From NCBI RefSeq assembly GCF_018977255.1, contig NW_024704742.1, positions 71,116,001 to 71,180,000 of the forward strand: DNA of 64,000 nt, given 5' to 3'. Source of the stretch: Callorhinchus milii. Lineage: Eukaryota. The position numbers and the translations under genes are program-made. Below are positions 1 through 26,177 of the stretch, piece by piece. How positions within the stretch are numbered: the stretch's first letter is position 1; every line of letters starts with the position of its first letter. Under the pieces are notes generated by a model. The model was not told the origin of the DNA and ran no database searches. It saw nothing but the letters and a program-made list of their open reading frames with translations.

Positions 1-394
1 CATCTCATCCACTGGGGGTCAGAGGGTATTCCAAAGAAAACAATGATGATTAATGAGGAAAGTAAGCTTTTGTTTCATCTCTCAGAGGCCCGGCCTGTGA
101 GTAATTACTAAACTGATGTCCAGCCAGCCATTGAGGATTGGATAGGCTCGGTTCCACTATGGCCTGAGTTCAAACTGCTGATTGTGTTGCCCCCAATGAA
201 GACTTCTCTGCCACGGAGCCGTGCGGCTCAAGTTTCAGATAAAGTGCTTCGGTGAATGAAAAATGAAAGTCGATTCTCGTTTATCGACTGTGCGGCAGCT
301 CAACTCCCACCCCCTCCAAACCCCATCCCCCAATGCCTGAAATTGCAGGGATGCGGAGAACAACAGTGGTTCCAGGAAGATAAATAATATTAAA

Positions 395-660
395 AACACT
401 TGCATTTATATAGCACCCATCAGGCAGTGTCGCGTCCTAGAGCTCTCGACACTGGCGGAGCACGACACCGAGCCTGAGGGAGGAGATGACCATAGGCATG
501 CTTGAAATGGAAGATCTTCAGGCAAGACTTGAAGATGGGGAAGGAAGGGGCAAAGCGGAGGGATAGAGGAAGAGTGTTCCAGACTTTCAGGGTGTAATGT
601 CCAAAAGCACGGCCACCAATGATGGAATGGAGAGCATGAGGTACATGACGGAAGCCGGAC
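395..660 (-). mobile_element. L2 LINE 3' fragment (mirror ~19265-19530, +)
   Basis: Translates to IGGRAFGHYTLKVWNTLPLSLRFAPSFPIFKSCLK (L2 ORF2 C-terminus), followed by the GCTATATAAATGCAAG tail. Confidence 0.85.
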
Positions 661-922
661 GACGCCTCCAACAATGTAGTACTGCCTCCAGCACTACACT
701 GGACCATCAGCTTAGACTGTGAGCTCAAAGGCAACCTTCTAACTCAGGCGCGAGAGCTACCGACTGAGCCAGGCTGGCACACAGCCTGGGGGGAGTGGGA
801 GAGGGAAGGTTCAACACCAGAACTCTGTCAACACTGACCTGGATGATGCCACAGTAAAATGAACAAGCGAGAGGCGAGACTGAGAGGAAATACTGTATAC
901 ATGTATGTATTTTTCCCCACAG

Positions 923-1034
923 ACTAGGGCCGAAGTGGAACCAATTCAGAGAGAAAGCAGCTCACGATGTGATGATTAACATCTCTATCAAGGAGCTGGT
1001 GCTTAGGAACGGGGCCTCTAATGCATACGACAAG
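923..1034 (+). other. Candidate internal exon, product unknown (mirror 18891-19002, -)
   Basis: TTTTTCCCCACAG acceptor, a single open frame LGPKWNQFREKAAHDVMINISIKELVLRNGASNAYDK in non-repeat sequence, and an AAG|GTGCAG donor. Not recognised as a known protein. Confidence 0.22.
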
Positions 1035-1319
1035 GTGCAGACCATGGAATTACAGCATCAAAACCAGTAATAATAATCATAATCCCTTACAATTCATACA
1101 ACCCCTACAAACCTCACAACCTCCCAAAGTACTTCACAGAGTAACTATCAGGTGTAGTGACTGTGTAGCTTGCACACACCATTTTGCATACTTATTTGGG
1201 GGATTATTGGCTAGGACACCAGGAGAGAGAATCTCCCTTCTCTTTTCTAACAGCATCATGGGGGGAATTGGGATCAGTGTCAGCCTGACTCAGTCAGGAG
1301 CACTCTTTCTCCTCCAAAT

Positions 1320-1765
1320 CAACAACTTGGATTTATATAGCACACTTCACGTAAGGCCGCATCTCAGAGCGTTTAACAGTCGCAGAGCCTGACACCGAGC
1401 TGGGGGAAGGGAGGAGGTGACCCTAAGCACAGTCAAAGAGGAAGCTCTTCAGTCCTAATCTAAAAGTGGGGAAGGAGGGAGCAAGGTGGAGGGATTGAGC
1501 GAGAGAGTTCCAAAGCTCCGGGGTCTGGTGGCTAAAAGCATTGCCACCAAAGGTGGAACGAAGGGGATGAGGGACAAGCAGGAAGCTGGACCCAGCAGAG
1601 CAGAGGTAGCATGCAGTAGAGTTGAGAAGAAGCAAGTCAGAAAGGTAGGGAAATGCCAGGACGTGAGACGAGTGAGAGGATCTTGAAATTGATCCGTTCG
1701 GTAATTGGGAGCCAGTGATACCCGGCGAGGACTGATGTGATGGGGATACGGAGTTTAGTGTGGGT
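1320..1765 (-). mobile_element. L2 LINE 3' fragment (mirror ~18160-18605)
   Basis: FGGNAFSHQTPELWNSLAQSLHLAPSFPTFRLGLKSFLFD, upstream degenerate HWLP..RI.FK motif, and L2 tail. Confidence 0.85.
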
Positions 1766-1769
1766 GGTG

Positions 1770-2185
1770 GAGTCGGAAGATTGTGGGTTCAAGCCCTATG
1801 GTGGGACACTTCGCTCATGTTCAAGGCTAACATTCCAGTGCAGTGCTCGGGGGTGGGGGTTGAAGGGGGAAGTACCATATTGTTAGAGATGCCAATCTTT
1901 GGTTATGAGAGGATAATCAAAAACTAAATACCTGCTCAAGTGATGTTAAAGATCCTGTGGTGCTGTTTGAAAAGAGAAGAGAGTTTCTCTCTCATGGTAG
2001 CCAACGTGAGTGATAAAACTTGTCACTCACTTCATGGCTGTTTGTGTGACGTTCCTGTGCACAAATTGGTTGCTGCTTTCGCCTAGAAAATACAGTCACT
2101 ACATTTTACAAAAAATCCTGTGAAGTACTTTGAGAACTTTTGTCACTGTGTTGAACTGCTATATCAAATACAAGGATTATGATTA
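1770..2185 (+). mobile_element. Deu-domain SINE (SacSINE1-like)
   Basis: GAGTCGGAAGATTGTGGGTTCAAGCCC head, CAGTGCAGTGCT...GTTAAAGATCC core, CTATATCAAATACAAGGATTAT tail. Confidence 0.8.
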
Positions 2186-2231
2186 TATTTTCAATGGTTA
2201 AGGAGAGGCCTAATTGAGGTCCTTAAAATAT

Positions 2232-2597
2232 AATAATAATATAATCCTTGCATTTGATATAGCGCTTCATCACATCTCCTAGATGTCTCAAAGGGCTTCA
2301 TCGAATATATTGTTTAGAGAATTGACTGTATTTTGTGGGCAAAATGCAGCAACCAATTGCATATAGCAGTGTCCCACAAACAGTCGTGGCTTGAGTGACC
2401 AAATTTATTTTTTTGAAGGAATTATTACCCCCGGAAAGTGATCCGCCAATTGAATAACAACTGAGTTCCTACTTACTGCTAGGAATCAGAGATGTGTGGA
2501 GTAAGGAAACTTGCCTAACGTTTCGACCTGCCGGGGATTGAACCCGGGTCCTCTCGTTTGCGAGGTGACTGAGCTAACCACCATACTACAGGACTCC
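2232..2597 (-). mobile_element. Full-length tRNA-headed CORE-like SINE (left-arm version)
   Basis: Minus strand starts GGAGTCCTGTAG, has a B box (GGGTTCAATCCCC) and TTAGGCAAGTTTCCTTACTCCAC core, and ends CAAATGCAAGGATTAT(TAT)n. Confidence 0.92.
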
Positions 2598-2604
2598 AGA
2601 AAAA

Positions 2605-2760
2605 TTAGTCCATAACATGATGAGGGGCTTCCTGGGTTTGCAGGAGAAATTATTTCCATTGGTCTGTGAGTCAGTGACTAGAGGACATCAATTTAAGATA
2701 GTTAGCAAGAGAGCAAAGGGAGAGATTTTAACACATAGCGTTGTAGGGATATGGATACCC
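2605..2760 (+). mobile_element. CR1 LINE ORF2 C-terminal fragment (mirror ~17176-17331)
   Basis: MRGF..EKLFPLVCESVTRGHQFKIVSKR, containing the CR1 TRGH motif. Confidence 0.8.
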
Positions 2761-3029
2761 CAGCAGGGTCCCAATCATCTTTCAAGATGGAACTACAACA
2801 GCAACAACAAGATTACATTTGTATAGCGCCTTTTAAGTCGGGAGGACGACCCAATACCCTGGACAGTGTGCAACATTTCAGACCCAAGCTGGGGTCGGCG
2901 AGGGAGAAAGGAGGGGAGGGGAAGGGGAGTGACCGATGGCACGGTTGCAGAGGAGGGTCTTGAGATAGAGATAGATATCTAAAGAAAACCATATAAATAC
3001 TTTGTAATTAATAATGCTGTATAATACTT

Positions 3030-3443
3030 CTCTTTGATATGTCAGTTTTCATGTTAGGAGAACCTCTCAAAGCGCTTTAGAGGATTCACTGTAAAATGTA
3101 GTGATTCTATCTGTGGGTGAACATGGCAGCTAATTTGGGCATAGTGACATACCCACAAACAGCCACAAAGTTATTTTATTTGGGGATTGTTGACCATGAC
3201 ACCAGAAGAGAGAAATGACTTCTCTTTTCGGGAAGTGCCATAAGGTCTTTAACAGCCACCTGAACAGGCAGCCGGGTTTAATGTCTCATCTGAAGGATGC
3301 CACCTCCAACAATACAGCGCTTCCCCAGCACTGCATTGGAGTGTCAGCTTAGAGGATGTGATTCCAAGTCCTGACGTGGGCCTTGAACCCACAACCTTCT
3401 GACTCAGAGGCAAGAGCGTTACCACTGAGCCAGACTAACACAC
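3030..3443 (-). mobile_element. Deu-domain SINE, near full length (mirror ~16493-16905, +)
   Basis: Mirror reads GTGTGTTAGTCTGGCTCAGTGGTAACGCTCTTGCCTCTGAGTCAGAAGGTTGTGGGTTCAAG, followed by the Deu core. Confidence 0.85.
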
Positions 3444-4096
3444 AAATTTTATCTTGGTCATTGTTGATGAGGGCACTGAGAAAGAAGAAACTCCTTTCTC
3501 TTTTCACATAGGGCCGTGGGACCTTTAGCGTCCACCTGATGGGAGCTCATCAGAAGGTCTATATCTCAGACAATGCAGTGTTTCCCCCAGCACTGCATTG
3601 GAGCATCAGTCCAGACTTTCCTGAAACTCCCATCCTTGATTCCCCCCACTACACCCCCACTCCGTGCACTCCTTTATATTTTTTCTCTTATTTATCTGAA
3701 TCTCTTCCAACAATCTCTCATTGATTGTACTTAAATCCATATCCAATGCCAACACTTACTCTGGGTTCAAGCACCTCCCCCACCACCCCCATATCAGGAA
3801 CAGTCTAGACTGACTCTCCAACATGGAACAGGGAGGGAGAATGGATGGGGATAAGGTGCACTACATTGTCAGAAGCACCAACCTTCGGAAGTGACATTTG
3901 GTTGAGGCCCTGTCCGTGCATGTTCAGTTGGAAGTTAAAGATAATAATAATAATGCTTGCATTTGATATATCACCATTGAGATGTTTCAAAGCGCTTCAA
4001 AGAATATATTGTAAAGTGGATTGATTGCATATTTTGAAATATAAGAGACAATAAAGTGCTTCCCCAGCACTGCATTGAAGTGTTATAGAAGAGACA

Positions 4097-4545
4097 TCTT
4101 ATCACATCTAGGCTTGATTATGGCAACTCCCTGCTTGTTGGCCTTCCCAGCTCTTCTCTCCACAAGCTGCAGATCATCCAGATCTCTACAGCTTGTGTCC
4201 TCTCCTGCACCAGGTTCCATGACCCCATCACCCCAACCCTCGCCAGGCTCCACTGGCTCCCCATCCCTCAGAGGATAGAGTTCAAAATCCTCATCCTTGC
4301 CTTCAAGGCTCTCCACGGTCTTGCTCCTTCCTACCTTTGTGACCTGCTAACCCCATATCAACATGTCCGCCCCTCCACTCAACAGTCTCTGGCCTGCTCC
4401 ATGGTCCCCCCGCGGGGCCCCACCATTTGGAATTCCAACTCAGAGTCCCTTTGCGTCGCTCCCTCCCTTGTCTTCTTCAAGATACGTCTCAAGACTCTTC
4501 TCTTCGACTTTGCCTTCGGCCATCCTCCTCCTCCACCTCCCCCTG
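4097..4545 (+). mobile_element. L2 LINE ORF2 3' fragment (mirror ~15390-15840)
   Basis: Degenerate SRLDYGNS...LHKLQIIQ...LHWLPIPQRIEFKILILAFKALHGLAPSYL. Confidence 0.88.
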
Positions 4546-5483
4546 ATCCTATTTGAGGTATACTTTAAATGAATCGGATATATTTTGTAGGCTAAAGGTG
4601 GCAGCCAATTACACACAGCAGTATCCCACACACAGTCGTGGATTGAGTGATCTTTCACGTTGAGAAGATGTCTCATTTTGTAAATGAACGTAATAATGCT
4701 ATCAACTGCAAAGAGTGTGGTTAATATTGTATTATTGTATTAGCGTATCGCTTTCCAGAGGTAACAATCCCTCAAAAAAAATTGGTCTTTAAATCCACAA
4801 CTGTTTGTGGGACATGGCTGTGCGCAATTGGCTGCCGTGTTTCAAACCCAAAATACAGTCAATTTATGTGACAATTTTTTTTGTGAAGCGATATGAGATG
4901 TCTCAACAATGTGATAAGGTGCTATATCAAATGCAAGGATTACTATTATTGTTGTTTTGCAATCTGTCAGAGGGAGAGACAGACAACTTAAAGCCATGAG
5001 ACAGTGTCATAACATAAGAACATAAGAATTTGCTAGACAAAAGAAGACTAAGGTCCCTCCAGGTTGCTTTCCACCATCCTAGCAGTCGCTTGACATATCG
5101 TGTCCCAAACTATATACTGTATCCCGAGATATTGATTCCTAACAGAAATCTATCTAATTTGTTCTTGAAAGAATCATCATTTTTTGCTTCCACCGTCTCC
5201 CTGGTGAATTCACTTTACAGTGTATTCTGTGAAGCACTTTGTGACGTCTTAATAATGTGATAAGCGCTATATCAAATGCGAGGATTATTATTATTATACA
5301 TTCTATCAGAGACAGCTGACTGAAGACTTAAAGGCGTGAGACAGTGACATACACCTGAGTAAACAGCACAGCTAACTCACAGCAAACTATATCTGGTGAT
5401 TGAGGGGCATGGGAAACGGGAAGATGAGTTGGAGACTTATGCGGAGTAGAAATATTTCCAAGAATTTTTATTTTCTGTTGCAG

Positions 5484-5639
5484 ATAAGTCCAGTGTAACA
5501 ATGTCTGACACCAGTAAAGTCCTCATCACTCCATCCATGTTACTGAAGATGTCATCGAACATGGTGACGGATTATTATCTGCCATGAAAATGATGGCGCT
5601 CACTCACACTGATCCTCTGGACATCTAAATACAATTAAA
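5484..5639 (+). other. Candidate terminal exon, product unknown (mirror 14297-14452, -)
   Basis: TTTTTATTTTCTGTTGCAG acceptor; the only long open frame is (D)KSSVTMSDTSKVLITPSMLLKMSSNMVTDYYLP* with stop at 5585-5587; ATTAAA at 5634-5639. Confidence 0.25.
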
Positions 5640-5889
5640 CACTTGTACTGACAACAATTAAGTACTTCTATATACAGTTATCATCATTCTTCCATATGTT
5701 ATTTTGCATTTTGCCCACAAAATATATCGTAGTGTACCCTGTGAAGCGCTTTGAAACGTCTCTAAGATATGATATTGCGCTATATCAAATGCAAGGATTA
5801 TTATTATGTTTCAATTGCTAGTGCACTGTAGACAAAAACATGGGGGTAACAGGACTTTTTAACACCTTGTACCATATCTCATCCGAGTA

Positions 5890-6140
5890 ACAGCACGTCC
5901 GAAAGTGCAGATGGAACTCCATCCTGAAGTCTCTCCAGCTTGTCAACAACCTTCCCCACTTTTGAAGCCCCTTAATACCTTCCTTTTTATCAGAGCTTTT
6001 GGGGGTCACCTTTAACCATCCCCACTCTTCTGAGCTCCGCCGCGCCCCCAGCCTGGGCTGCCAGCCAACTCTGTAAAGCTCTTTGAGATCTTGCCCCAAT
6101 GTGAATTGCACTGTGTGAATCTAAAATTGTAGTTATTATT
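5890..6140 (+). mobile_element. Old L2 3' end
   Basis: ATGGAACTCCATCC...CTTAATACCTTCCTTTTT...TGTAAAGCTCTTTGAGATC tail. Confidence 0.7.
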
Positions 6141-8369
6141 GCAGGCTATCTTATAATTATCACAACTTGCTTTGGACTCACCAACAAGTGGAAACAGCCT
6201 ATCGACATCTACATAATTGGAGTGGAATGCGCACTCCCTCTCTCTCTCTCCTTGGAGGGACATATCTTGCTTCCTGAATTCCAGAGAGTATTGGGCACAG
6301 GTTGGCAACAGCCAAGGCTTGGGGGTCCCTTTGGTACAGTATGTGTAAAGGAGGAAGGAGTGAGTTGTGAGCAGGAGATCAATGATGAAACTGTGCCTGT
6401 GAACTTGTAAGGTGTTTTGTTTTTCAGCACAATCAAAGTTTAGGAAGAGACCTAAAGACCTGTGTCATCTTTTCTCCACCCCTGTTTATCCTCTCATTTT
6501 GGTGATATATGGCTCTCCCCCAGGAGGTGAGAGCTCAAACTGCAGAATGGGTCCATGAGAGACTGATATCCCATCAACACCCAAAGGTCATCCCGTCACA
6601 GACACCCAAAGACAAACCTAACAGTGGTTCAGTCAGCATTGCTCTCGCCTCTGGGTCAGAAGGTTTAAGCCCCACTTTGAGCCTTTGAGCTCATAGTCCA
6701 GACCGACCCTCTAGTGCAGTGCTTGGGGGGACACTGTATTATGGGAGGCTCTATCCTTTTGATGAAACGATAAACTGAGATCCTATCTGTGCCCTGTTCA
6801 GGTGGACGTTAAAGATCCCTCAAAATTTTCTCCCTGCTCAGACATCTCTGTGAAGTCCTGCAAGACCTAAGAAAAAAATTAATGAATTAGTTAATCTTTA
6901 TCGCGTTGTTGAGACGTCTCAAAGCACTTCACAGAATATATTGCAATGTGGATTGACTGTGTATTTAGTGGGTGAAACATGGCAGCCAATTGTGCACAGC
7001 ACTGTCCTGCAAACAGTCATGGATTGAGTAACCAAATTATTAATATATCTTTTCATTATTACCTACGATTACTAGCTCCTGAGCTCCTTGTTGGGGGAGA
7101 GAGGGGGTGGGGCAGGACAGTAAATAGAAACTACACACAGAACGAACGTCATTCAAAGTTGTATGAAATTTGTTGTCCAAATGCGTTGTTGTGAAGCTCT
7201 GAGACAACAGTAACAAGAAATGACAAGTGTGCTATCAGGAGGACATCCCAAATTCCTGGACAGTCAGGGATTTGGACCCAAGCTGGGAGATGAGATCAGG
7301 AGGGGTGGAAGGCACAGAGGGTAGGGGTAGGAGGGTGAATCAAAGGCGCTGTTAGTCATTGTGAAGCTCCAAGACGTCTGCAGGGTATGAACAACACTGT
7401 TGACATGGTGAGAGATACCTTGAGGCCTGAGCCATGGATTTGATGTCCTCCTCACTATCAAAGTGCAGTATAATAATAATCTTTATATTGGATATGGAAC
7501 CTTATCATGTCTTTGAGATGTCTCAAAGCGCTTCACAGAATATACTGTGAAGTGAATTGATTGTGTTTTGTGGGCGTTGTCCTGTCTGACATAAACAACG
7601 CTGTGTGACAAGCTTGGGCTTTTAAATAATTTATCATTTTTATTGAGGTGACATTTCAACATAAAAAACAGGAGGTGTGCGTGCAAGAGAACCGAGCGGG
7701 TGTGGGGAGGCGAGTCCTTAACATCCCCTCACTGCCCCAAACCCAGCTAAAAAGATTCAAATCACATCCCAATCCATTATCTTTTCTCGTTTGTTTGAAG
7801 ATGACTTTTTTACGTGATTTTTTTTGTGGGGCGGGGACATTAAGCATTTAATGTCTTAATAATGTCTTATCAATTTTCTGTCTTTTTTCTTTTGCTTAAA
7901 TCACTTTCCCTCTCTCTCTTTCATCTCTTTCCCCTTATTGGTGAGTGTACACCCAGCGATTGCCTTCTCTCTGCCTCTTTCTCACCATGACACAGTTTGC
8001 GAATCACACGTTTGGCTATTTTTTTGAGGCAGACCAAATGTTGAAAGCGGGATTTGCATTTGAAAGTGACTGTATGTGTGTGTGTGTGTGTGGGTGGAGG
8101 AGAGCGAAGGTTGATAGCACTGAATGGCGATGCCTGGGGTGAAGTAGTGAGACACGTGTGCAGAGAGCTACTACGAGTGATATCTTTGCTAATCTCAATG
8201 TCAGTTTAACTTCTTCACTCCCCAAGTGGAAACATTGCTATCTGTCCTGGTCTTTCGGGCTGACAAACCATTTCCCAAATTTCACATCAGCCAGAATTAG
8301 GGACAAGCCTTCAATCCACTCTTAATTAAAAAGCCGGTTTTCAAGCTTAAACTTAAGAAACCAAAATTA

Positions 8370-8800
8370 ATAATAAATAATCCTTGCATTTGATGTAACA
8401 CTTTTCACATGGGGTGGATGTTTCAAAGTACTCCACAGGAAACATTAAAAAGTGTGGTGACCATATTTTTGTAGGCAAACGCAGCTGCCAATTTGTACAC
8501 AGCAACATCCCACAAACAGGCATGGAGTGAGTGATCAATTTTCTGGCAGATTATTAGCCAGGATACCAGAAGAGAGAAACTTCCTCCTCCTTTTGAACAG
8601 CATCGCAGAGATCTTTAACGACCGCCTCAACAGGCACAAACAGGATCTTGGTTTAATGCTTCATCTGAAGGACGTCGCCTCCGACAATGCAGCACTCCTC
8701 CCAGCCCTGCACTGGAGTATCAGCCCGGACTGTGAGCTCAAAGTCACGACTTCGGGCTTGAACCACAACCTTCTGACTCTGAGGCGAAAGCACTACCGGC
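8370..8800 (-). mobile_element. Deu-domain SINE
   Basis: ATAATCCTTGCATTTGAT tail through ...AACCTTCTGACTCTGAGGCGAAAGCACTACC head. Confidence 0.85.
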
Positions 8801-9214
8801 ATGTCTTAATTGCTCCAAATGAAGAATTGTGATTAGTTCTTCACAGCTATCTCCTGTGAAAATGTTTTGACACATTTCAATCTTATCAGCAGTGTGGCAA
8901 AGACCAGGACTATTATTATTATCATTTTATATTTCAGGACAAAATGGTTCTATAAGCTAGGTCTAGGGGTAATTTTTTGGCCTAAGAAGCCTTCAAGCTA
9001 CAATAATTTACATTTATATACAGTTGTGCCTCTCACATTTGGAGGACATCTCAAAGCACTTCAGAAAAAGGGATTTCCACCATTAATAACAATAATCCTT
9101 ACATTTGATATAGCACCTTATCGGTTTGTTATGGCGTCCAGTGCATTGGGATGTCCTTCCGACTTGAAAGGCGCTATACAAATGTAAATGTGTTGTTGTT
9201 GTTGGTGTTGCTGT

Positions 9215-9562
9215 CTCAAAGTGCTTCACAGAATATACTGTAAAGTGAGTTGACTGTACATTTTATGGGCGAAATGCAACAGCTAATTGCACACAGCAGT
9301 GTCCCACAAACAGTCATCGATTGAGTGATCAAATTATTATTTTTTAAATTATTTTTTGTGGGAGAGATGATTACTCCTGGAAAGTGATCCGTCAATCTAC
9401 TAACAACTGGGTTCATACTTACTGCTTGGTAAACAACAACAACAACAACAACAACACCAACAAGATTACATTTGACAGAGACATGTAGGGTAAGGAAACT
9501 TGCCTAATATTTCGCCTCAACTGGGAATTGTGACGCAAGCACACTGACCACTGTCCTACGGA
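9215..9562 (-). mobile_element. CORE-like SINE interrupted by a short L2-type (AAC)n tail at ~9432-9475
   Basis: Family motifs GTCCCACAAACAGTC and GTAAGGAAACTTGCCTAA, with an (AAC)n + AAGATTACATTTG insert. Confidence 0.8.
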
Positions 9563-9887
9563 TTTAAGTCTTCGTATATGAGCTATAGAAAGTTCCATTG
9601 TCATTTCGTCCGCCCCCTCTCCTCTCCGCCCGCCCCCAGAATGGTCAGACAATTGAACCTTGTAAATAAAAAACCTGTAAGCGTACAGATGGGACAGATT
9701 ACCAAGCGTAAAGGACAGGTTTAAAGAGGGGCAAGAACTGAGGAACAGATGTTACAAATTCGCTCATTCATCTTTGGTGATACAGGTTCAACTGCAGGCC
9801 AGACATGGGTGTGGGTTCCTACCTCTGTCTGGGAGTTAAAGGTCAGGGGGAACAGCGCTTTGGCACCGTGAAGTCAGTTTGAGACAC

Positions 9888-10270
9888 GGGGAGAGAGAGA
9901 GAGAAAGAGAGGGAAAACCAGATGGAAAATAGAGAAAAAGGAGTAAGTGAGAGTGAGAGAAATAGAATATGAGAGGAGTGAGTGAGAGGGAGCGAGAGAA
10001 AGAAAGAATGAGTGACAGAGCGCGAGAGAGAAGAGGAAGAAAACGAGGGAGGCAGAAAATGAGAAAAAATGAGAGTAAGTGAGAGTGAGAGAAAAAGAAT
10101 GAGAGAATGAGAGGAGAGAGAAAGAGACAGAGAGAATGAGAATGAGAGAGAGAGAGAGAAAGAGAGGGAAAGAGGAAGAGAATGAGTGAGAAAAAGAAAT
10201 AAAGAGAGAGAGAGAGGACGAGAGAGAGAGAGAAAGAGACAATGAGAGAAAATATATAAAGTCAGAGTGA
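9888..10270. repeat. GA-rich polypurine low-complexity tract
   Basis: Degenerate (GA)n/GAGAAT sequence, source of the spurious Ser/Leu/Phe ORFs. Confidence 0.95.
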
Positions 10271-10499
10271 GAAATTTTATTCGGGGAATTGTTGGCCAAG
10301 ACACTGGGAAAGAGAAACTCCCTTTTCCTTTCGAATAGTGTCATAGGTTCCTTAACTTCCCACCCGAAGGACAGCGCTTCCGACAATGCAACACACCCCC
10401 AGCACTGCATTGCAGCATCTCTTTAGACTGTGTGATTTCAAGTCCCAACGTGGGCCTTGAATCCATAACCTTCTGATTCAGAGGCGAGAATGCTACCAC

Positions 10500-10858
10500 T
10501 GAATGAGATTATGTGTGTGTGTGTGAGAGAGAATGAGATTGTGTGAGTGTGTGTGAGAGAGAATGAGACTGTGTGAGTGTGAGAGAGAATGAGATTATAT
10601 GTGTGTGTGAGAGAGAATGAGATTGTGTGAGTGTGTGTGAGAGAGAATGAGACTGTGAGTGTGAGAGAGAGAATGAGATTATGTGTGTGTGAGAGAGAAT
10701 GAGATTGTATGAGTGTGTGTGAAAGAATGAGATTGTGTGTGTGTGTGAGAGAGAATGAGATTGTGTTTGTGAGTGTGTGTGAGAAAGAGAATGAGATTAT
10801 GTGAGCGTGTGTGAGAGATAATGGGACTGTGTGTGTATGAGAGAGAGAATGAGTTTAT
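10500..10858. repeat. Minisatellite, ~26-32 bp unit GAGAGAGAATGAGATT(GT)n
   Basis: About 12 tandem units. The array resumes at ~11201 after a SINE insertion. Confidence 0.92.
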
Positions 10859-10863
10859 AAATA

Positions 10864-11203
10864 AATAATAATATAATCCTTGCATTTGATATAGCGCTTC
10901 ATCACATCTCCTAGACATCTCAACGCACTTTGCAGCATATACTATAAAGTGAATTGACTGTATATTTTGTGCGCGAAATGCGGCAGCCAATTTGCGCACA
11001 ACTGTGTCCCAAAACAGTCATGGATTGAAGTGACCAAATGATTATTATTATTTTTGAAGGGATTATTACCCCGGAAAGCGATCCGCCAATCGACCAGCAA
11101 CCAGGTTCCTACTTACTGCTAGGTAAACAGAAGCGTGTGGAGTAATTAAATTTGCTTAAGGTTTCTCCCTGCCCGATAATCAAACCCGAATCCTCTCGCT
11201 TGA
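10864..11203 (-). mobile_element. CORE-like SINE inserted in the minisatellite (spacer copy)
   Basis: Tail AATCCTTGCATTTGATATAGCG, core CTACTTACTGCTAGGTAAACAG, head truncated at CCTCTCGCTTG. Confidence 0.9.
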
Positions 11204-11659
11204 GAGAATGAGATTATGTGTGTGAGTGTATGTGTGTGAGAATATGTGTGTGAGCGAGTGTGTGTGTGATTATGTGTGAGAGTGAGTGTGTGCGTCATTA
11301 AATGTGTAAGTGTGTAGCTTATAAGTAGAGAGCACTATTGTCTAACTCTGAGATCAACAAGAAACCAGTGAGATGCGTGTTACACTGAAACCACCTCAGA
11401 TCTTAACCACATTTTCCTCTCTCACAGGTGATAACATACGCTGACGGTCAGGGGGTGCAAAATAGGCAGCGCGTTTTTCCCAAGTTAGAGAGGCACTGAG
11501 ATTACACACTGAGAAAGAGACCATTAACACAGCCTGGCCAAGGGGAGAGGGAGCTGTTACCTGAATATTGGGCAGTACTATTAAATGCAAGGATTTTATT
11601 ATAATCCCAGTGAGACTGGGTAACACAACATAAACCAGAGAGACACAGTCACACAGACA

Positions 11660-11796
11660 GGCATGGGAAAAAGAGAGAAAGAGAAAAAAGGGGTGAGAGA
11701 GAATGAAAGAGTGCAAGAGGAAATAAAGATAGATAGATGTGGGAGAGAGAGAGAAAAAGATGAATAGAGAGACATTGGAAAGAGAAAGAGAGAATA

Positions 11797-11831
<35 letters not shown>

Positions 11832-12219
11832 TGTGGGGAAAAGAAAGAAAGAAAGAAAGAAAGAAAAAGGAAGGAAGGAAGGAAGGAAGAAAGAAAGAAA
11901 GAAAGAAAGAGACATAGAAAAAAGATGAGTAAATGAAGATAGAAAGAGAAGTGAAAGAGAAAGAGTGAATTAGAGAGAAAATGAGATAGATGAGAAAGGA
12001 GAGAAGATGTGAAGATCTTTTCTGGAAGACAGAGGGAGAGAAAGGCAGAAGAAAGGAAAAAAGGGCAAGAAAGAGGCCAGAGTAGAGAAAAGAGAAAAAG
12101 AGGAGTGAGTGAAGAACACATGGAGATGAAGGAAGTGTGAGAGGGGAGAAAAAACAGGGGGAAGAAGTGACAGAGAGAAAGATAAGAAAAGTCAACAAAG
12201 TACTGTAAAAGGAGGGAAA
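11660..12219. repeat. Polypurine/(TA)n/(GAAA)n/(GGAA)n tract abutting the inner breakpoint of the right arm
   Basis: Direct inspection. Confidence 0.93.
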
Positions 12220-15200
12220 TCGCCTCCCCACACCCGCTCGGTTCTCTTGCACGCACACCTCCTGTTTTTTATGTTGAAATGTCACCTCAATAAAAATGAT
12301 AAATTATTTAAAAGCCCAAGCTTGTCACACAGCGTTGTTTATGTCAGACAGGACAACGCCCACAAAACACAATCAATTCACTTCACAGTATATTCTGTGA
12401 AGCGCTTTGAGACATCTCAAAGACATGATAAGGTTCCATATCCAATATAAAGATTATTATTATACTGCACTTTGATAGTGAGGAGGACATCAAATCCATG
12501 GCTCAGGCCTCAAGGTATCTCTCACCATGTCAACAGTGTTGTTCATACCCTGCAGACGTCTTGGAGCTTCACAATAACTAACAGCGCCTTTGATTCACCC
12601 TCCTACCCCTACCCTCTGTGCCTTCCACCCCTCCTGATCTCATCTCCCAGCTTGGGTCCAAATCCCTGACTGTCCAGCAATTTGGGATGTCCTCCTGATG
12701 TGACACTTGTCATTTCTTGTTACTGTTGTCTCAGAGCTTCACAACAACGCATTTGGACAACAAATTTCATACAACTTTGAATGACGTTCGTTCTGTGTGT
12801 AGTTTCTATTTACTGTCCTGCCCCCACCCCCCTCTCTCCCCCAACAAGGAGCTCAGGAGCTAGTAATCGTAGGTAATAATGAAAAGATATATTAATAATT
12901 TGGTTACTCAATCCATGACTGTTTGCAGGACAGTGCTGTGCACAATTGGCTGCCATGTTTCACCCACTAAATACACAGTCAATCCACATTGCAATATATT
13001 CTGTGAAGTGCTTTGAGACGTCTCAACAACGCGATAAAGATTAACTAATTCATTAATTTTTTTCTTAGGTCTTGCAGGACTTCACAGAGATGTCTGAGCA
13101 GGGAGAAAATTTTGAGGGATCTTTAACGTCCACCTGAACAGGGCACAGATAGGATCTCAGTTTATCGTTTCATCAAAAGGATAGAGCCTCCCATAATACA
13201 GTGTCCCCCCAAGCACTGCACTAGAGGGTCGGTCTGGACTATGAGCTCAAAGGCTCAAAGTGGGGCTTAAACCTTCTGACCCAGAGGCGAGAGCAATGCT
13301 GACTGAACCACTGTTAGGTTTGTCTTTGGGTGTCTGTGACGGGATGACCTTTGGTGTTGATGGGATATCAGTCTCTCATGGACCCATTCTGCAGTTTGAG
13401 CTCTCACCTCCTGGGGGAGAGCCATATATCACCAAAATGAGAGGATAAACAGGGGTGGAGAAAAGATGACACAGGTCTTTAGGTCTCTTCCTAAACTTTG
13501 ATTGTGCTGAAAAACAAAACACCTTACAAGTTCACAGGCACAGTTTCATCATTGATCTCCTGCTCACAACTCACTCCTTCCTCCTTTACACATACTGTAC
13601 CAAAGGGACCCCCAAGCCTTGGCTGTTGCCAACCTGTGCCCAATACTCTCTGGAATTCAGGAAGCAAGATATGTCCCTCCAAGGAGAGAGAGAGAGGGAG
13701 TGCGCATTCCACTCCAATTATGTAGATGTCGATAGGCTGTTTCCACTTGTTGGTGAGTCCAAAGCCAGTTGTGATAATTATAAGATAGCCTGCAATAATA
13801 ACTACAATTTTAGATTCACACAGTGCAATTCACATTGGGGCAAGATCTCAAAGAGCTTTACAGAGTTGGCTGGCAGCCCAGGCTGGGGGCGCGGCGGAGC
13901 TCAGAAGAGTGGGGGATGGTTAAAGGTGACCCCCAAAAGCTCTGATAAAAAGGAAGGTATTAAGGGGCTTCAAAAGTGGGGAAGGTTGTTGACAAGCTGG
14001 AGAGACTTCAGGATGGAGTTCCATCTGCACTTTCGGACGTGCTGTTACTCGGATGAGATATGGTACAAGGTGTTAAAAAGTCCTGTTACCCCCATGTTTT
14101 TGTCTACAGTGCACTAGCAATTGAAACATAATAATAATCCTTGCATTTGATATAGCGCAATATCATATCTTCGAGACGTTTCAAAGCGCTTCACAGGGTA
14201 CACTGACGATATATTTTGTGGGCAAAATGCAAAATAACATATGGAAGAATGATGATAACTGTATATAGAAGTACTTAATTGTTGTCAGTACAAGTGTTTA
14301 ATTGTATTTAGATGTCCAGAGGATCAGTGTGAGTGAGCGCCATCATTTTCATGGCAGATAATAATCCGTCACCATGTTCGATGACATCTTCAGTAACATG
14401 GATGGAGTGATGAGGACTTTACTGGTGTCAGACATTGTTACACTGGACTTATCTGCAACAGAAAATAAAAATTCTTGGAAATATTTCTACTCCGCATAAG
14501 TCTCCAACTCATCTTCCCGTTTCCCATGCCCCTCAATCACCAGATATAGTTTGCTGTGAGTTAGCTGTGCTGTTTACTCAGGTGTATGTCACTGTCTCAC
14601 GCCTTTAAGTCTTCAGTCAGCTGTCTCTGATAGAATGTATAATAATAATAATCCTCGCATTTGATATAGCGCTTATCACATTATTAAGACGTCACAAAGT
14701 GCTTCACAGAATACACTGTAAAGTGAATTCACCAGGGAGACGGTGGAAGCAAAAAATGATGATTCTTTCAAGAACAAATTAGATAGATTTCTGTTAGGAA
14801 TCAATATCTCGGGATACAGTATATAGTTTGGGACACGATATGTCAAGCGACTGCTAGGATGGTGGAAAGCAACCTGGAGGGACCTTAGTCTTCTTTTGTC
14901 TAGCAAATTCTTATGTTCTTATGTTATGACACTGTCTCATGGCTTTAAGTTGTCTGTCTCTCCCTCTGACAGATTGCAAAACAACAATAATAGTAATCCT
15001 TGCATTTGATATAGCACCTTATCACATTGTTGAGACATCTCATATCGCTTCACAAAAAAAATTGTCACATAAATTGACTGTATTTTGGGTTTGAAACACG
15101 GCAGCCAATTGCGCACAGCCATGTCCCACAAACAGTTGTGGATTTAAAGACCAATTTTTTTTGAGGGATTGTTACCTCTGGAAAGCGATACGCTAATACA

Positions 15201-18200
15201 ATAATACAATATTAACCACACTCTTTGCAGTTGATAGCATTATTACGTTCATTTACAAAATGAGACATCTTCTCAACGTGAAAGATCACTCAATCCACGA
15301 CTGTGTGTGGGACACTGCTGTGTGTAATTGGCTGCCACCTTTAGCCTACAAAATATATCCGATTCATTTAAAGTATACCTCAAATAGGATCAGGGGGAGG
15401 TGGAGGAGGAGGATGGCCGAAGGCAAAGTCGAAGAGAAGAGTCTTGAGACGTATCTTGAAGAAGACAAGGGAGGGAGCGACGCAAAGGGACTCTGAGTTG
15501 GAATTCCAAATGGTGGGGCCCCGCGGGGGGACCATGGAGCAGGCCAGAGACTGTTGAGTGGAGGGGCGGACATGTTGATATGGGGTTAGCAGGTCACAAA
15601 GGTAGGAAGGAGCAAGACCGTGGAGAGCCTTGAAGGCAAGGATGAGGATTTTGAACTCTATCCTCTGAGGGATGGGGAGCCAGTGGAGCCTGGCGAGGGT
15701 TGGGGTGATGGGGTCATGGAACCTGGTGCAGGAGAGGACACAAGCTGTAGAGATCTGGATGATCTGCAGCTTGTGGAGAGAAGAGCTGGGAAGGCCAACA
15801 AGCAGGGAGTTGCCATAATCAAGCCTAGATGTGATAAGATGTCTCTTCTATAACACTTCAATGCAGTGCTGGGGAAGCACTTTATTGTCTCTTATATTTC
15901 AAAATATGCAATCAATCCACTTTACAATATATTCTTTGAAGCGCTTTGAAACATCTCAATGGTGATATATCAAATGCAAGCATTATTATTATTATCTTTA
16001 ACTTCCAACTGAACATGCACGGACAGGGCCTCAACCAAATGTCACTTCCGAAGGTTGGTGCTTCTGACAATGTAGTGCACCTTATCCCCATCCATTCTCC
16101 CTCCCTGTTCCATGTTGGAGAGTCAGTCTAGACTGTTCCTGATATGGGGGTGGTGGGGGAGGTGCTTGAACCCAGAGTAAGTGTTGGCATTGGATATGGA
16201 TTTAAGTACAATCAATGAGAGATTGTTGGAAGAGATTCAGATAAATAAGAGAAAAAATATAAAGGAGTGCACGGAGTGGGGGTGTAGTGGGGGGAATCAA
16301 GGATGGGAGTTTCAGGAAAGTCTGGACTGATGCTCCAATGCAGTGCTGGGGGAAACACTGCATTGTCTGAGATATAGACCTTCTGATGAGCTCCCATCAG
16401 GTGGACGCTAAAGGTCCCACGGCCCTATGTGAAAAGAGAAAGGAGTTTCTTCTTTCTCAGTGCCCTCATCAACAATGACCAAGATAAAATTTGTGTGTTA
16501 GTCTGGCTCAGTGGTAACGCTCTTGCCTCTGAGTCAGAAGGTTGTGGGTTCAAGGCCCACGTCAGGACTTGGAATCACATCCTCTAAGCTGACACTCCAA
16601 TGCAGTGCTGGGGAAGCGCTGTATTGTTGGAGGTGGCATCCTTCAGATGAGACATTAAACCCGGCTGCCTGTTCAGGTGGCTGTTAAAGACCTTATGGCA
16701 CTTCCCGAAAAGAGAAGTCATTTCTCTCTTCTGGTGTCATGGTCAACAATCCCCAAATAAAATAACTTTGTGGCTGTTTGTGGGTATGTCACTATGCCCA
16801 AATTAGCTGCCATGTTCACCCACAGATAGAATCACTACATTTTACAGTGAATCCTCTAAAGCGCTTTGAGAGGTTCTCCTAACATGAAAACTGACATATC
16901 AAAGAGAAGTATTATACAGCATTATTAATTACAAAGTATTTATATGGTTTTCTTTAGATATCTATCTCTATCTCAAGACCCTCCTCTGCAACCGTGCCAT
17001 CGGTCACTCCCCTTCCCCTCCCCTCCTTTCTCCCTCGCCGACCCCAGCTTGGGTCTGAAATGTTGCACACTGTCCAGGGTATTGGGTCGTCCTCCCGACT
17101 TAAAAGGCGCTATACAAATGTAATCTTGTTGTTGCTGTTGTAGTTCCATCTTGAAAGATGATTGGGACCCTGCTGGGGTATCCATATCCCTACAACGCTA
17201 TGTGTTAAAATCTCTCCCTTTGCTCTCTTGCTAACTATCTTAAATTGATGTCCTCTAGTCACTGACTCACAGACCAATGGAAATAATTTCTCCTGCAAAC
17301 CCAGGAAGCCCCTCATCATGTTATGGACTAATTTTTCTGGAGTCCTGTAGCATAGTAGTTAGGGCACTCGTCTCGCGAGGACCCGGGTTCGATTCCCAGA
17401 TGGGGCGAAACCTTAGACAATTTTCCTTACTCCACATGTCTCTATTTACCTAGCAGTAAGTAGGAACCCAGTTGTTAGTCAATTGACGGATTGGTTTCAG
17501 AGGGTAATAATCCCTTCAAAAAAAAATAATATTAATTTGGTCACTCAATCCATGACTGTTTGTGGGACACAGCTGTGCGCAATTGGATGCTGTGTTTTGC
17601 CCACAAATGCTTACAATATATTCTGTGAAGCGCTTTGAGACATCTCAATGAAGTGATAAGCTATATCAAATGCAAGGATTATTATTATTATTATATTTTA
17701 AGGACCTCAATTAGGCCTCTCCTTAACCATTGAAAATATAATCATAATCCTTGTATTTGATATAGCAGTTCAACACAGTGACAAAAGTTCTCAAAGTACT
17801 TCACAGGATTTTATTGTAAAATGTAGTGACTGTATTTTCTAGGCGAAAGCAGCAACCAATTTGTGCACAGGAACGTCACACAAACAGCCATGAAGTGAGT
17901 GACAAGTTTTATCACTCACGTTGGCTACCATGAGAGAGAAACTCTCTTCTCTTTTCAAACAGCACCACAGGATCTTTAACATCACTTGAGCAGGTATTTA
18001 GTTTTTGATTATCCTCTCATAACCAAAGATTGGCATCTCTAACAATATGGTACTTCCCCCTTCAACCCCCACCCCCGAGCACTGCACTGGAATGTTAGCC
18101 TTGAACATGAGCGAAGTGTCCCACCATAGGGCTTGAACCCACAATCTTCCGACTCCACCACCCACACTAAACTCCGTATCCCCATCACATCAGTCCTCGC

Positions 18201-19925
18201 CGGGTATCACTGGCTCCCAATTACCGAACGGATCAATTTCAAGATCCTCTCACTCGTCTCACGTCCTGGCATTTCCCTACCTTTCTGACTTGCTTCTTCT
18301 CAACTCTACTGCATGCTACCTCTGCTCTGCTGGGTCCAGCTTCCTGCTTGTCCCTCATCCCCTTCGTTCCACCTTTGGTGGCAATGCTTTTAGCCACCAG
18401 ACCCCGGAGCTTTGGAACTCTCTCGCTCAATCCCTCCACCTTGCTCCCTCCTTCCCCACTTTTAGATTAGGACTGAAGAGCTTCCTCTTTGACTGTGCTT
18501 AGGGTCACCTCCTCCCTTCCCCCAGCTCGGTGTCAGGCTCTGCGACTGTTAAACGCTCTGAGATGCGGCCTTACGTGAAGTGTGCTATATAAATCCAAGT
18601 TGTTGATTTGGAGGAGAAAGAGTGCTCCTGACTGAGTCAGGCTGACACTGATCCCAATTCCCCCCATGATGCTGTTAGAAAAGAGAAGGGAGATTCTCTC
18701 TCCTGGTGTCCTAGCCAATAATCCCCCAAATAAGTATGCAAAATGGTGTGTGCAAGCTACACAGTCACTACACCTGATAGTTACTCTGTGAAGTACTTTG
18801 GGAGGTTGTGAGGTTTGTAGGGGTTGTATGAATTGTAAGGGATTATGATTATTATTACTGGTTTTGATGCTGTAATTCCATGGTCTGCACCTTGTCGTAT
18901 GCATTAGAGGCCCCGTTCCTAAGCACCAGCTCCTTGATAGAGATGTTAATCATCACATCGTGAGCTGCTTTCTCTCTGAATTGGTTCCACTTCGGCCCTA
19001 GTCTGTGGGGAAAATATACATACATGTATACAGTATTTCCTCTCAGTCTCGCCTCTCGCTTGTTCATTTTACTGTGGCATCATCCAGGTCAGTGTTGACA
19101 GAGTTCTGGTGTTGAACCTTCCCTCTCCCACTCCCCCCAGGCTGTGTGCCAGCCTGGCTCAGTCGGTAGCTCTCGCGCCTGAGTTAGAAGGTTGCCTTTG
19201 AGCTCACAGTCTAAGCTGATGGTCCAGTGTAGTGCTGGAGGCAGTACTACATTGTTGGAGGCGTCGTCCGGCTTCCGTCATGTACCTCATGCTCTCCATT
19301 CCATCATTGGTGGCCGTGCTTTTGGACATTACACCCTGAAAGTCTGGAACACTCTTCCTCTATCCCTCCGCTTTGCCCCTTCCTTCCCCATCTTCAAGTC
19401 TTGCCTGAAGATCTTCCATTTCAAGCATGCCTATGGTCATCTCCTCCCTCAGGCTCGGTGTCGTGCTCCGCCAGTGTCGAGAGCTCTAGGACGCGACACT
19501 GCCTGATGGGTGCTATATAAATGCAAGTGTTTTTAATATTATTTATCTTCCTGGAACCACTGTTGTTCTCCGCATCCCTGCAATTTCAGGCATTGGGGGA
19601 TGGGGTTTGGAGGGGGTGGGAGTTGAGCTGCCGCACAGTCGATAAACGAGAATCGACTTTCATTTTTCATTCACCGAAGCACTTTATCTGAAACTTGAGC
19701 CGCACGGCTCCGTGGCAGAGAAGTCTTCATTGGGGGCAACACAATCAGCAGTTTGAACTCAGGCCATAGTGGAACCGAGCCTATCCAATCCTCAATGGCT
19801 GGCTGGACATCAGTTTAGTAATTACTCACAGGCCGGGCCTCTGAGAGATGAAACAAAAGCTTACTTTCCTCATTAATCATCATTGTTTTCTTTGGAATAC
19901 CCTCTGACCCCCAGTGGATGAGATG
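12220..19925 (-). repeat. Right arm of large inverted duplication
   Basis: Starts TCGCCTCCCCACACCCGCTCGG (reverse complement of 7692-7713). Position 19925 pairs with window position 1, so the arm may extend further right. Confidence 0.98.
17339..17693 (+). mobile_element. Full-length tRNA-headed CORE-like SINE (right-arm version, different copy sequence)
   Basis: Same family and same insertion point as 2232-2597, but the internal sequence 17351-17659 is strongly diverged from it. Confidence 0.92.
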
Positions 19926-20552
19926 TGAGTACCTGTCGGGCGTTGCGGGGCCTAGCGACAGAGTTGAGGCCTTCCTCGCTTAGCACTCCCCTCCCATCCC
20001 CCCCCTCCCTCACCCCTTCCCCCCACCTCTCCACTGCGGAGGCCGGAATCCACGAACAAGTCTGGGACCCTAATGCCTTTTGTAATGGCGAATTATAAAG
20101 TGTTACAGGGAAAGATTAATCTGAGGGAGAAAGGGACAGGCCTCAGACTCCGAGGTAATGTGAGAGGGCCAAAGAGCGATGGAAAAATGCAGACAGGCTG
20201 GTCCCTGTGACTGGAGCAGCGCAGACATATTAACCTTAAAACATGTCATTTGTTTATTTAGGTTTAAATGTCTGACCGCAAACATCGCATTAAATAAAAT
20301 CGGTAAACGCTTAACAAATTGTCAGCCCCCCGGACAATGTTACTCAGTGAGAAGCGTTGTCTCTAACACAGGGACGCAGCACTCCCGTGTGTTCTCCACA
20401 CTCTATTCATACCCTTCGGGGTTTTCACACAAGCACACACACACCTTTCAATTGCTTTTTAGTTTTTTTTTGTTCATTTTATTATGCTTTTACTTTTATT
20501 TTTACTACTATTTTGATACAATTTCAAATTGGTTGGCACTTTGATTATTAAA

Positions 20553-20636
20553 GTGTTATTATATAATATACAGTTATAGCCAGTAACACACAGTGTGTTA
20601 TTATATAATATACAGTTATAGCCAGTAACACACGGT
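20553..20636. repeat. 42-bp tandem duplication GTGTTATTATATAATATACAGTTATAGCCAGTAACACACAGT
   Basis: Two adjacent copies, with a related remnant at ~21945-21970 on the far side of the CR1. Confidence 0.9.
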
Positions 20637-20639
20637 ACA

Positions 20640-21933
20640 TTATTAGCTAGATTTGCTGATGACATCAAGTTGGGGGAAACAGTGAAACCATGGGAAGCAA
20701 ATAATAATAATCCTTTCATTTGATGCAGTGTCTTATAAAATTGACATGTCTCAAAGCTCTTCACAGAATATACTGTAAAATGAAATAACTGTATATTTTG
20801 TGGTTGAAATGTATTATTACTATTAAACATTGTTATGAAATGCATTATTATTAAGTAAAGTCTTACAAAGAGAGCTTGATAAGTTTTGCACATGGCTGAT
20901 AACTGGCAAATGAAATTGAATGCAAATAACTAAGGTACTACATACAGAAAGTAAGAATAGGAAACATATTTACTCCATGGATAATAATATTCCCAACATT
21001 TGATCCGACACCTTTCACATCAGGAGGATGTCTCAAACATTTCACAGGACACACTGAAAAGTGTAGTGACTGTGTACTTTGTAAGCAAAAGTGGCAGCCC
21101 ATTTGCTTACAGCTAGGTCCCCAAAACAGCCATGAAGTGAACAACCAGTTCTTATTTGTGGGAATTTGATAGCCAGGACATCGGAAGAAACACTTTTCTC
21201 TTTTCGAATAGTGCAATGAATCTTTAACATCCACCTGAACAGGCACAGATGTGCCCTTGATTTAACATCTCATCCAAAGGACGGCACCTCCAATAATGCA
21301 ACACCCCCCAGCACCTTACTGGAGTGTCAGCGTAGACTATATGAGTTCAAAATCCCCAAATGGGGCTTGAACCCACAATCTTCTGACTCAGAGACAAGAG
21401 CTTTAATAACTGAGCCAGGGATAAAATTTGCTAAGGAGGAGCTGAGAGAGATCCCAGGGTGTTAGTTGACTCGTCGCTCACTGTGTCACAGGGACAGTGC
21501 AGAAGAAAGTAACGAGGCTGACCCCCAATGTTAGAGAAATGAGCTGTGAGCAACAATTAGACAAACTAGGGCTCTTGAGACAAGATGACTCAGAGGGGCC
21601 TTATCCAGATATATAACATTATAAGTGGGATTGAAAAAGTAAACCCAGATCAATACTTTCAGATGCATCAAGACAGTAGAACAAGATGAGACAGGTTTAG
21701 AGATGTAAATGGGCAATTTCAGGAAAGACGCCAGGAAGTATTTCTTTACCCAGAGGGGAATTAATGACTGGAACAGGGTTACTAGGAAGGGGGTGTTCAG
21801 ACCAAGATACTAGGACTCGTTTAAAAAGCAGCTCGATGCTGTAATAGGGATGGTTGGGAGGGTGTTCTGGAGGGATGAGATCAGATGAGCCAAAGGGTCT
21901 TCTTTATCCAATGTCAATCTTGTGCTCTTGTGA
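20640..21933 (+). mobile_element. Degenerate CR1 LINE (RT to 3' end) with nested SINEs at ~20700-20810 and ~20983-21418 (both -)
   Basis: FADDIKLG (RT motif), LQRELDK..W.DNWQMK, ERD.GVLVD-like segment, RKYFFTQR, and 3' tail ATCTTGTGCTCTTGTGAT. Confidence 0.88.
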
Positions 21934-23794: not shown

Positions 23795-24150
23795 GGAGTC
23801 CTGTAGCCTATTGGTTAGATCATTTGCCTCACAAGCGAGAGGACCTGGGTTTGATTCCTAGGCGGGGCGAAACCTTAGGCAAGTTTCCTTACTCCACACG
23901 CCTCTGTTTACCAAGCAGCGAGTAGGAACCCGGTTGTTAGTTGATTGATGGATCGCTTTTACGGAGATAATAATCCCTCCACAAATAATTCAATCCACAA
24001 TTGTTTGTGGGACACTGCAGTACGCAATTGGCTGCCGCATTTCATCCACAAAATATACAGTCAATTAATTTAGCAAAATATTCTGTGAAGCGCTTTGAAA
24101 CATCTCAATGGCATGATAAAGCGCTATATCAAATAGAAGGATCATTATTT
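23795..24150 (+). mobile_element. Full-length CORE-like SINE
   Basis: GGAGTCCTGTAGCC head, GGCGAAACCTTAGGCAAGTTTCCTTACTCCACACGCCTCTGTTTAC core, L2-type tail. Confidence 0.92.
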
Positions 24151-25978: not shown

Positions 25979-26177
25979 AAATTATTAAATATAATTTAAA
26001 AAATAAATCCCTTCATGTCCTGGCACTCCCTACCTCTCCGACCTGCTTACTCCCTAACCCACGACCCATTGCCTCTACTTGACTGGCTACGGTCTCCTAC
26101 TTGTCTGTGCCCTCCATTCCATCATCTATATGTGTATTGAAAATGTGGTCCGCCACTGTCACTGTCACTGTCACTGT

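Follow-up and report, generated by a model that had tools for sequence, protein, structure and literature searches.

In a 64,000-nt stretch taken from the Callorhinchus milii (elephant shark) assembly (contig NW_024704742.1, positions 71,116,001 to 71,180,000; hereafter the window), two nearly identical arms of an inverted repeat face each other across a 4.5-kb spacer. We tentatively read this structure as a recent inverted duplication-insertion that arose by template switching, probably heterozygous and not fixed in the species, and we put this reading at just short of an even chance. The likelihoods given here and below for the various readings are judgements and were not computed.

Geometry of the inverted repeat

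Comparison of the window with itself by BLAST was dominated by a single match, between 1-7713 and 19925-12220 on the minus strand, with 98.78% identity across 7,731 columns and a bit score of 13,716; the second-ranked self match scored 311. This bears out the original prediction, made from the letters alone, that 1-7713 mirrors 12220-19925 around a spacer at 7714-12219. The arms are 98.8% identical when one short interspersed element (SINE) that differs between them is included and 99.8% identical without it, the latter value being above the 99% criterion for palindromes. The window contains no N. The match stops at 19925 since position 1 is the window edge; the left arm is thus cut and the outer ends lie beyond view, so that the arm length of at least 7,713 nt is a lower bound, to be read against a palindrome-class criterion of ~10 kb. 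The main features are the following.

1..7713, plus strand: left arm (A), from self-comparison; truncated by the window edge and, compared with the right arm, short of a base at 6 places
7714..12219, no strand: spacer (S), single-copy, 4,506 nt; contains SINE fragments, microsatellites and GA-rich tracts
12220..19925, minus strand: right arm (A'), reverse complement of 1-7713; may continue past 19925
7713..7714, no strand: arm-to-spacer junction, probably the derived one, judging from a contig of another fish (run X13, see below)
12219..12220, no strand: spacer-to-arm junction, bordering a GA-rich tract; presumed ancestral
4623..7713, no strand: inner 3.1 kb of the arm, containing all 6 arm-arm substitution events
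4089..4556, plus strand (mirror 15380-15847): decayed fragment of a long interspersed element (LINE), which we take to be L2-like; the same in both arms and homologous to 26677-26986

The LINE fragment is identical in the two arms, in agreement with the earlier claim that old decayed repeats are alike in both.

Copy number and junctions in other fish

Among the 22 sequencing runs listed, four (X10-X13) contained at least half of the sequence words, with 0.60-0.63 of the words of 1-9800. They represent four samples of one study, consist of contigs only, and were aligned to 7670-24600. The share of words gives no copy-number information, and runs X1-X9 (0.05-0.07) were not used as evidence. Summed depth in bins was swamped by repeats and served only to scale the runs. 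Depth was compared over all 32 long pieces listed, after each run had been scaled by its depth in repeat bins, and the 2 pieces that cross 19925 were kept apart; contig depth is a poor measure of copy number, and the results are indicative. Two contigs pass unbroken over 19925, 19388-20582 in X10 and 19367-20582 in X13.

Mean depth among the pieces listed was 6.86 in the arm (14 pieces), 6.57 in the spacer (9 pieces) and 5.24 in the flank (7 pieces). The pooled arm/spacer ratio was 1.04 (bootstrap 95% interval 0.90-1.24; 32 listed pieces, four fish) and never reached 2 in 20,000 bootstrap draws. Per run, the ratio was 1.40, 1.31, 0.83 and 0.88, and 0.91-1.33 with a wider set of pieces to which more contigs had been added; the arm/flank ratio was 1.31 (1.07-1.74). 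Two arm copies in all four fish are excluded, within the limits of contig depth as an indicative measure, and the arm/spacer ratio argues against fixation of the duplication in the species. X10 and X11, whose ratios are 1.3-1.4, may include heterozygous carriers.

One contig bears on the junction at 7713/7714. Letters 1-684 of record 25 of X13 (894 nt, depth 8.5, minus strand) align from 8396 down to 7713, and its other 210 letters do not continue into 7712-7670, though the reference covered that stretch. A check of the orientation convention was passed: in X11 record 15, just as in X13 record 31, the 468 unaligned letters fall on one and the same side of 22343. Were the 210 letters arm sequence, they would cross 7503-7545, part of a SINE that is near consensus there, in a bin with a summed depth of 140,000-204,000. 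Such values are unlike the depth of 8.5 of the contig, and the 210 nt beyond 7713 are therefore apparently non-arm DNA. Whatever these letters are, the contig continues unbranched past 7713, which indicates that X13 displays only one arm-spacer junction, on the evidence of a single contig from a single run and with the proviso that contig building can drop a branch. If this contig shows the ancestral join, a microhomology of ~1 nt at 7713/7714 is implied. The joints and loose ends of the run contigs yielded only repeat noise among the rows listed.

A palindrome fixed in the species and maintained by gene conversion between its arms is very improbable on these data. It would suit the 99.8% identity of the arms outside the SINE, old repeats included, as well as the arm/flank ratio and the values of 1.3-1.4 in X10 and X11, and the single allele found per run is compatible with two copies since contigs keep one side of a bubble. 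However, no bootstrap draw reached the twofold arm/spacer depth that it predicts, the X13 contig passes one junction without branching, the SINE would be expected to be alike in both arms if conversion were still at work, and no Pfam family was found in the 7 of 7 open reading frames (ORFs) scanned in arms and spacer. The comparison of arm with spacer depth, which the original prediction had proposed as a check, thus speaks against a fixed two-arm palindrome in these contigs of other fish. Of its proposal that the duplication is very recent or actively homogenized, the first half fits, and the second is at odds with four approximately single-copy fish, one of them with a single junction.

Sequence differences between the arms

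Outside the SINE, the arms differ by 13 events in ~7,370 nt, namely seven one-base gaps and six substitution events (8 bases). The left arm is without one base at 910, 2111, 5730 and 6019 and twice at 7107-7108, and the right arm without one at the equivalent of 6580; the base is thus missing from the left arm at 6 of 7 gap sites (P 0.125). The substitution events lie at 4623, 5763, 6168, 7231-7233, 7255 and 7357, and the outer 4.6 kb of the arms has none. This confinement to the inner 3.1 kb has a P of ~0.002 in a mean-position test and of 0.005 with a boundary picked post hoc. The sites named in the original prediction are all correct, but it had passed over 910, 2111, 4623, 6019, 6168 and 6580. 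Polarizing the differences by means of repeat copies gave a clear result only at 2111 and 4623, where the left arm departs from the repeat majority. Of the 11 sites, 6 gave nothing or nothing that could be used, and the signal at 5763, 7231-33 and 7255 was weak.

Six of the 13 differences were informative in the contigs of other fish, the other seven having no row or listed piece. The right-arm state was present at 19015 in three runs (3/3 covering) and at 13915 in two (2/2 covering), and the left-arm gaps at 910 and 6019 therefore look like consensus errors. Similarly, the left-arm state occurs at 13352 in all four runs, so that the right-arm gap there looks like an error. At 14205 three runs carry a third letter, and the left arm corresponds to that allele minus one base of a two-base run. 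Four 1-bp gaps among the differences checked thus look like consensus errors. The substitutions at 13766 and 12576, in contrast, are real natural variants: at the former, the left type occurs in X13 and the right type in X10 and X12, and at the latter X13, the sole run with cover, has the left type. As contigs retain one side of a bubble, both states are shown to be natural, but allelism is not thereby shown.

Substituted bases amount to 0.11% between the arms, and the window differs from the other fish by 0.11% in the arm pieces (7 in 6,207 nt) and by 0.13% over all 32 listed pieces (22 differences in 16,634 nt). The other fish differ from the window at 13 further arm sites; of the 17 arm rows of the table, 3 were set aside as arm-difference sites and 1 as a repeat pile-up. 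The two arms agree with each other at 13 of 13, including 16218, where three runs differ, and 16890, where 3 of 4 do. This agreement between the arms fits copying from one haplotype.

Three further observations came from the same comparison. An extra A is present behind 20044 in three runs, likely another 1-bp consensus error just past the visible arm, and a poorly polished duplicated stretch may extend further. In a SINE fragment of the spacer, four substitutions within 20 nt (8444-8463) are common to X10 and X12 and partly found in X11 and X13, which might reflect gene conversion over a short tract or the presence of a near-identical paralogue. At 11503 all four runs differ from the window, which suggests a private allele or a population difference.

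The natural variants bring into play an alternative in which the palindrome is false: the animal would be heterozygous for a balanced inversion that flips the 4.5-kb spacer, and its two haplotypes would have been assembled head to head. With U standing for upstream DNA outside view, haplotype 1 would read U-S-A' and haplotype 2 U-inverted S-A', and the arms would be two alleles of one locus. The assembler would enter haplotype 2 backwards, cross the shared spacer and exit through haplotype 1, and the SINE swap would be an allelic difference that helped keep the arms apart. Such a path yields exactly a gap-free A-S-A'. It is consistent with single-copy depth in other fish, with an arm divergence that equals the divergence between fish, and with the presence of two natural variants among the arm substitutions; the clustering of substitutions beside the junction is as expected near an inversion, the clean join with a 1-nt overlap suits end-joining, and false heterotype duplications are described as common assembly errors (10.1101/2020.05.22.110833). 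We nevertheless consider it less likely than the favored reading, of which it is a near competitor. Reads longer than 4.5 kb would normally span such an inversion, making a mis-walk uncommon, and false duplications are usually gap-separated or at contig ends according to the same source, whereas the window is without N. Moreover, substitutions are lacking from the outer 4.6 kb, the two arms have letters in common that are mostly absent from the other fish, and a separate rare replacement of the SINE would be required. The mechanism is our own reasoning, as a literature search returned no title or abstract describing a false palindrome that stems from a heterozygous inversion. An inversion of the spacer mediated by repeats was rejected: of 49 inverted pairs, the 25 longest include no long one that flanks the spacer immediately within its two ends. 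The main text and one supplement of PMC3964593 contain no figure for the heterozygosity of the species; other supplements may give it.

A replaced SINE

The largest difference between the arms is at a SINE located at mirror sites, and it involves the following features.

2235..2598, minus strand: tRNA-headed SINE of the left arm, 10.2% from the window consensus; strand taken from the tRNA match on the aligned copy 49907-49980
17338..17690, plus strand: SINE at the mirror site in the right arm, 8.6% from the consensus and 77.8% identical to the left copy
2232..2283, plus strand: 52-nt tract at the tail end of the left-arm SINE, an exact match to a spacer SINE including non-consensus letters
10864..10915, plus strand: partner 52-nt tract in the spacer SINE (~10860-11206), in the same orientation and 8,632 nt away

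The flanks of the site match exactly for 130 and 2,037 nt, and between 2240 and 2585 the two copies are separated by 60 difference events. The original prediction had rightly set a single SINE apart, but the difference, at 60 events and the identity listed above, is larger than it implied. Relative to a consensus built from 16 other copies in the window, the left and right SINEs share 6 derived states; across 113 unrelated pairs the number of such states averaged 3.5 and went up to 11. As each is 9-10% from the consensus and they have only these 6 derived states in common, they are independent copies, and one has thus replaced the other. The comparison of derived states also ruled out that the left SINE is a mutated form of the right one or a consensus blend. 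The same site and flanks with a different copy inside, as observed here, is one of the marks of SINE-to-SINE conversion.

The match of 52 nt is the longest among 153 SINE pairs, of which the runner-up has 44 nt and the median is 23. The 22 nt of it that are non-consensus are matched nowhere else in the window within 3 mismatches. Outside the arms, the window has only one longer non-tandem exact match, of 66 nt between two LINE-type 3' ends. A shared subfamily is an unlikely source of the tract, given that the two copies are ~80% alike overall and that the private 22 nt are unmatched elsewhere in the window. A partner was identified for these 52 nt only, and the window holds no donor for SINE positions 2284-2585. 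By its letters, the left-arm SINE looks like a mosaic of two sources. This SINE, swapped in register and carrying a 52-nt patch from nearby, tells more than any other odd feature of the locus.

A mosaic could also be produced in the laboratory or the assembler. The join at 7713/7714 might stem from a chimeric molecule or from an under-collapsed path of low coverage, and the left SINE might be a patchwork of locally recruited reads, created while the consensus was built or polished. The base missing from the left arm at 6 of 7 gap sites (with its P of 0.125) points in that direction, as do the left-arm gaps at 910 and 6019 that are not present in 3/3 and 2/2 covering runs, the departure of the left arm from the repeat majority at 2111 and 4623, and the resemblance of the SINE to a two-source mosaic. 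However, the left SINE is aged and unremarkable, 10% from the consensus, and is neither a blend nor an indel-rich noisy read. Other fish really do carry the left-type letters of 13766, 12576 and 13352, and a read with a missed adapter would be expected to duplicate the spacer also. We regard an artefact of this kind as distinctly unlikely.

Proposed origin of the duplication

We favor the recent inverted duplication. The data above show the geometry, the replaced SINE with its tract and an arm depth near single copy in four other fish; from them we infer which order is ancestral, that the duplication is heterozygous, that it arose by template switching and that the gaps are errors. Ordinary chromosomes would have the order U-S-A'-D, as suggested by the X13 contig. 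During replication or break repair, a new strand would leave U, copy A' backwards from at or beyond 19925 down to 12220, and rejoin the start of S at 7714 to give A-S-A'. The SINE passed in copying would be replaced by the sequence of another copy and by the 52-nt patch common to the spacer SINE, in the same event or through later conversion. The substitutions between the arms would be ordinary alleles, the right-arm consensus mixing in the normal homologue, and the left arm, with fewer reads, would retain more 1-bp consensus errors.

Template switching would account for the substitution-free outer arm and would require one event for the SINE swap, and the swap of a whole SINE together with a tract from a copy 8.6 kb away fits copying from multiple templates. 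The original prediction had opposed a true palindrome to two haplotypes falsely assembled head to head. The fixed palindrome has lost ground, and the haplotypes gain support from the two natural variants, though they are unproven. A private or polymorphic real duplication, which that prediction did not consider, fits at least as well.

Several points weigh against the favored reading. The data are contigs of other fish, and no molecule with both junctions was seen. The apparent microhomology of 1 nt compares with 8 and 4 bp in a template-switch allele of CHM (PMC8756506), and among the 21 fold-back junctions reported in PMC3907307, 13 have 2-8 bp, 3 long homology and 5 insertions, as opposed to ~1 nt here. 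The arms differ at natural variants (13766, 12576), and their divergence of 0.11% equals that between fish, both of which two haplotypes predict directly. No donor in the window accounts for 2284-2585 of the SINE. Finally, neither SINE type is visible in the other fish; the pieces listed include none over 17338-17690 and none that crosses 12219/12220, which is no evidence either way.

A stronger version, in which one replication event built both the inverted arm and the swapped SINE by way of two other SINE copies, one of them (52 nt) in the spacer, and returned in register, is improbable in our judgement. If true, it would capture in nature, and in a cartilaginous fish, a connection between gene conversion of a whole SINE and the template switching that accompanies rearrangement.

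Repeat and coding content

The window is dense in tRNA-headed SINEs, with 5 matches to the tRNA family, all outside 1-19925, and in LINE fragments. No Rfam match was found in 1-19925, and the ORF scan of the window revealed no gene in the arms. Among 10 window ORFs, one match to RVT_1 (E 5.9e-06, below the Pfam cut-off) lies beside 26677-26986. It belongs to a longer LINE fragment at 26058-27300, whose 3' end is 90-96% identical to 56254-56392 and 37157-37345; judging from sequence, this identity points to a young subfamily.

The SINEs fit the description of CmiSINEs, and we assign them to that family provisionally. CmiSINEs (SINE2-1_CM and SINE2B-1_CM) are CORE-SINEs of the elephant shark, with averages of 12.6% and 17.2% over 302,861 copies (PMC5499810). 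Like them, the SINEs of the window have a tRNA head and a LINE-like tail, and their copies are ~7-18% from the window consensus.

Minisatellites occur at 10501-10858, 25710-25978, 54124-54260 and 20553-20645, with periods of ~26-28, 70, 28 and 42 nt, respectively. A pair of direct repeats (30721-31008 and 33078-33357; 290 nt, 84% identity) is unlike the common SINE. Three repeat-free segments (~31600-31860, 36560-36780 and 52840-53100) resemble conserved non-coding elements by eye. Long G and C runs at 38839-38870 and 56049-56115 make the length of the consensus unreliable there. Overall, the locus looks like neutral variation in repeat-rich DNA, and we propose no function for it.

Comparison with known systems

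Either way, the locus does not represent a new class of maintained palindrome: it is a private inverted duplication or a false duplication, both of known kinds. If real, it adds another to the private structural variants of DNA that is apparently non-coding, and the in-register replacement of a whole SINE would show a way in which rare whole-element conversions can come about. If an artefact, it means that a reference on which comparisons of early vertebrates draw contains 7.7 kb or more of false duplication and conceals an inversion polymorphism of 4.5 kb.

The allele of CHM attributed to fork stalling and template switching or microhomology-mediated break-induced replication (FoSTeS/MMBIR; 1,752 bp, PMC8756506) is reported as private to its carriers. 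It resembles the present case, which is known from assembled sequence only, in that the inverted copy and its source are close together and enclose DNA that was not duplicated. A second, outer junction back to the original sequence would here lie upstream of position 1. In contrast with that allele, the arm here measures 7.7 kb or more and encloses 4.5 kb of spacer, the microhomology is ~1 nt rather than 8 and 4 bp, the arm contains no known exon, one SINE is swapped, and linkage in cis is presumed. Fold-back inverted duplications in humans similarly have a single-copy spacer, and the 4,506 nt observed here is within their reported range (766-70,466 bp, median 3,428; PMC3907307). However, they adjoin terminal deletions or translocations, whereas this locus is interstitial, and their junctions display microhomology of 2-8 bp, long homology or insertions, unlike the apparently clean 1-nt join. 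Interstitial inverted variants can carry alleles of both homologues, according to a review (PMC10766186).

False heterotype and homotype duplications are recognized by half coverage and uneven consensus quality (10.1101/2020.05.22.110833). Allele-like differences between the copies, an uneven consensus and a single-copy look in other individuals are features in common with them, but they are mostly tandem or gap-separated, whereas the arms here are inverted, gap-free in the window and share one spacer. Palindromes of sex chromosomes (PMC8327919, 10.1101/800185, PMC3723533) also have kilobase arms >99% identical around a unique spacer, and those of the primate X are conserved and contain gene families (PMC8327919). 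The present structure differs from them in that it is not fixed among individuals, no gene family was found in it, and it shows no sign of sex linkage; the candidate for a holocephalan X is a 500-kb scaffold in Chimaera phantasma (PMC12952989).

The closest parallel to the swapped SINE is Alu-to-Alu gene conversion, in which a SINE at a fixed site is wholly or partly replaced by another copy (PMC8230782). Conversion between Alu types in primates is very rare, at ~0.0005% of loci in the comparison given there, and favors neighbors within ~10 kb, a finding credited in that source to Aleshin and Zhi. The replacement described here differs in lying between two arms of one assembly and not between species, and in having two apparent sources. 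The SINE in register with its 52-nt patch is the only unusual feature of the locus.

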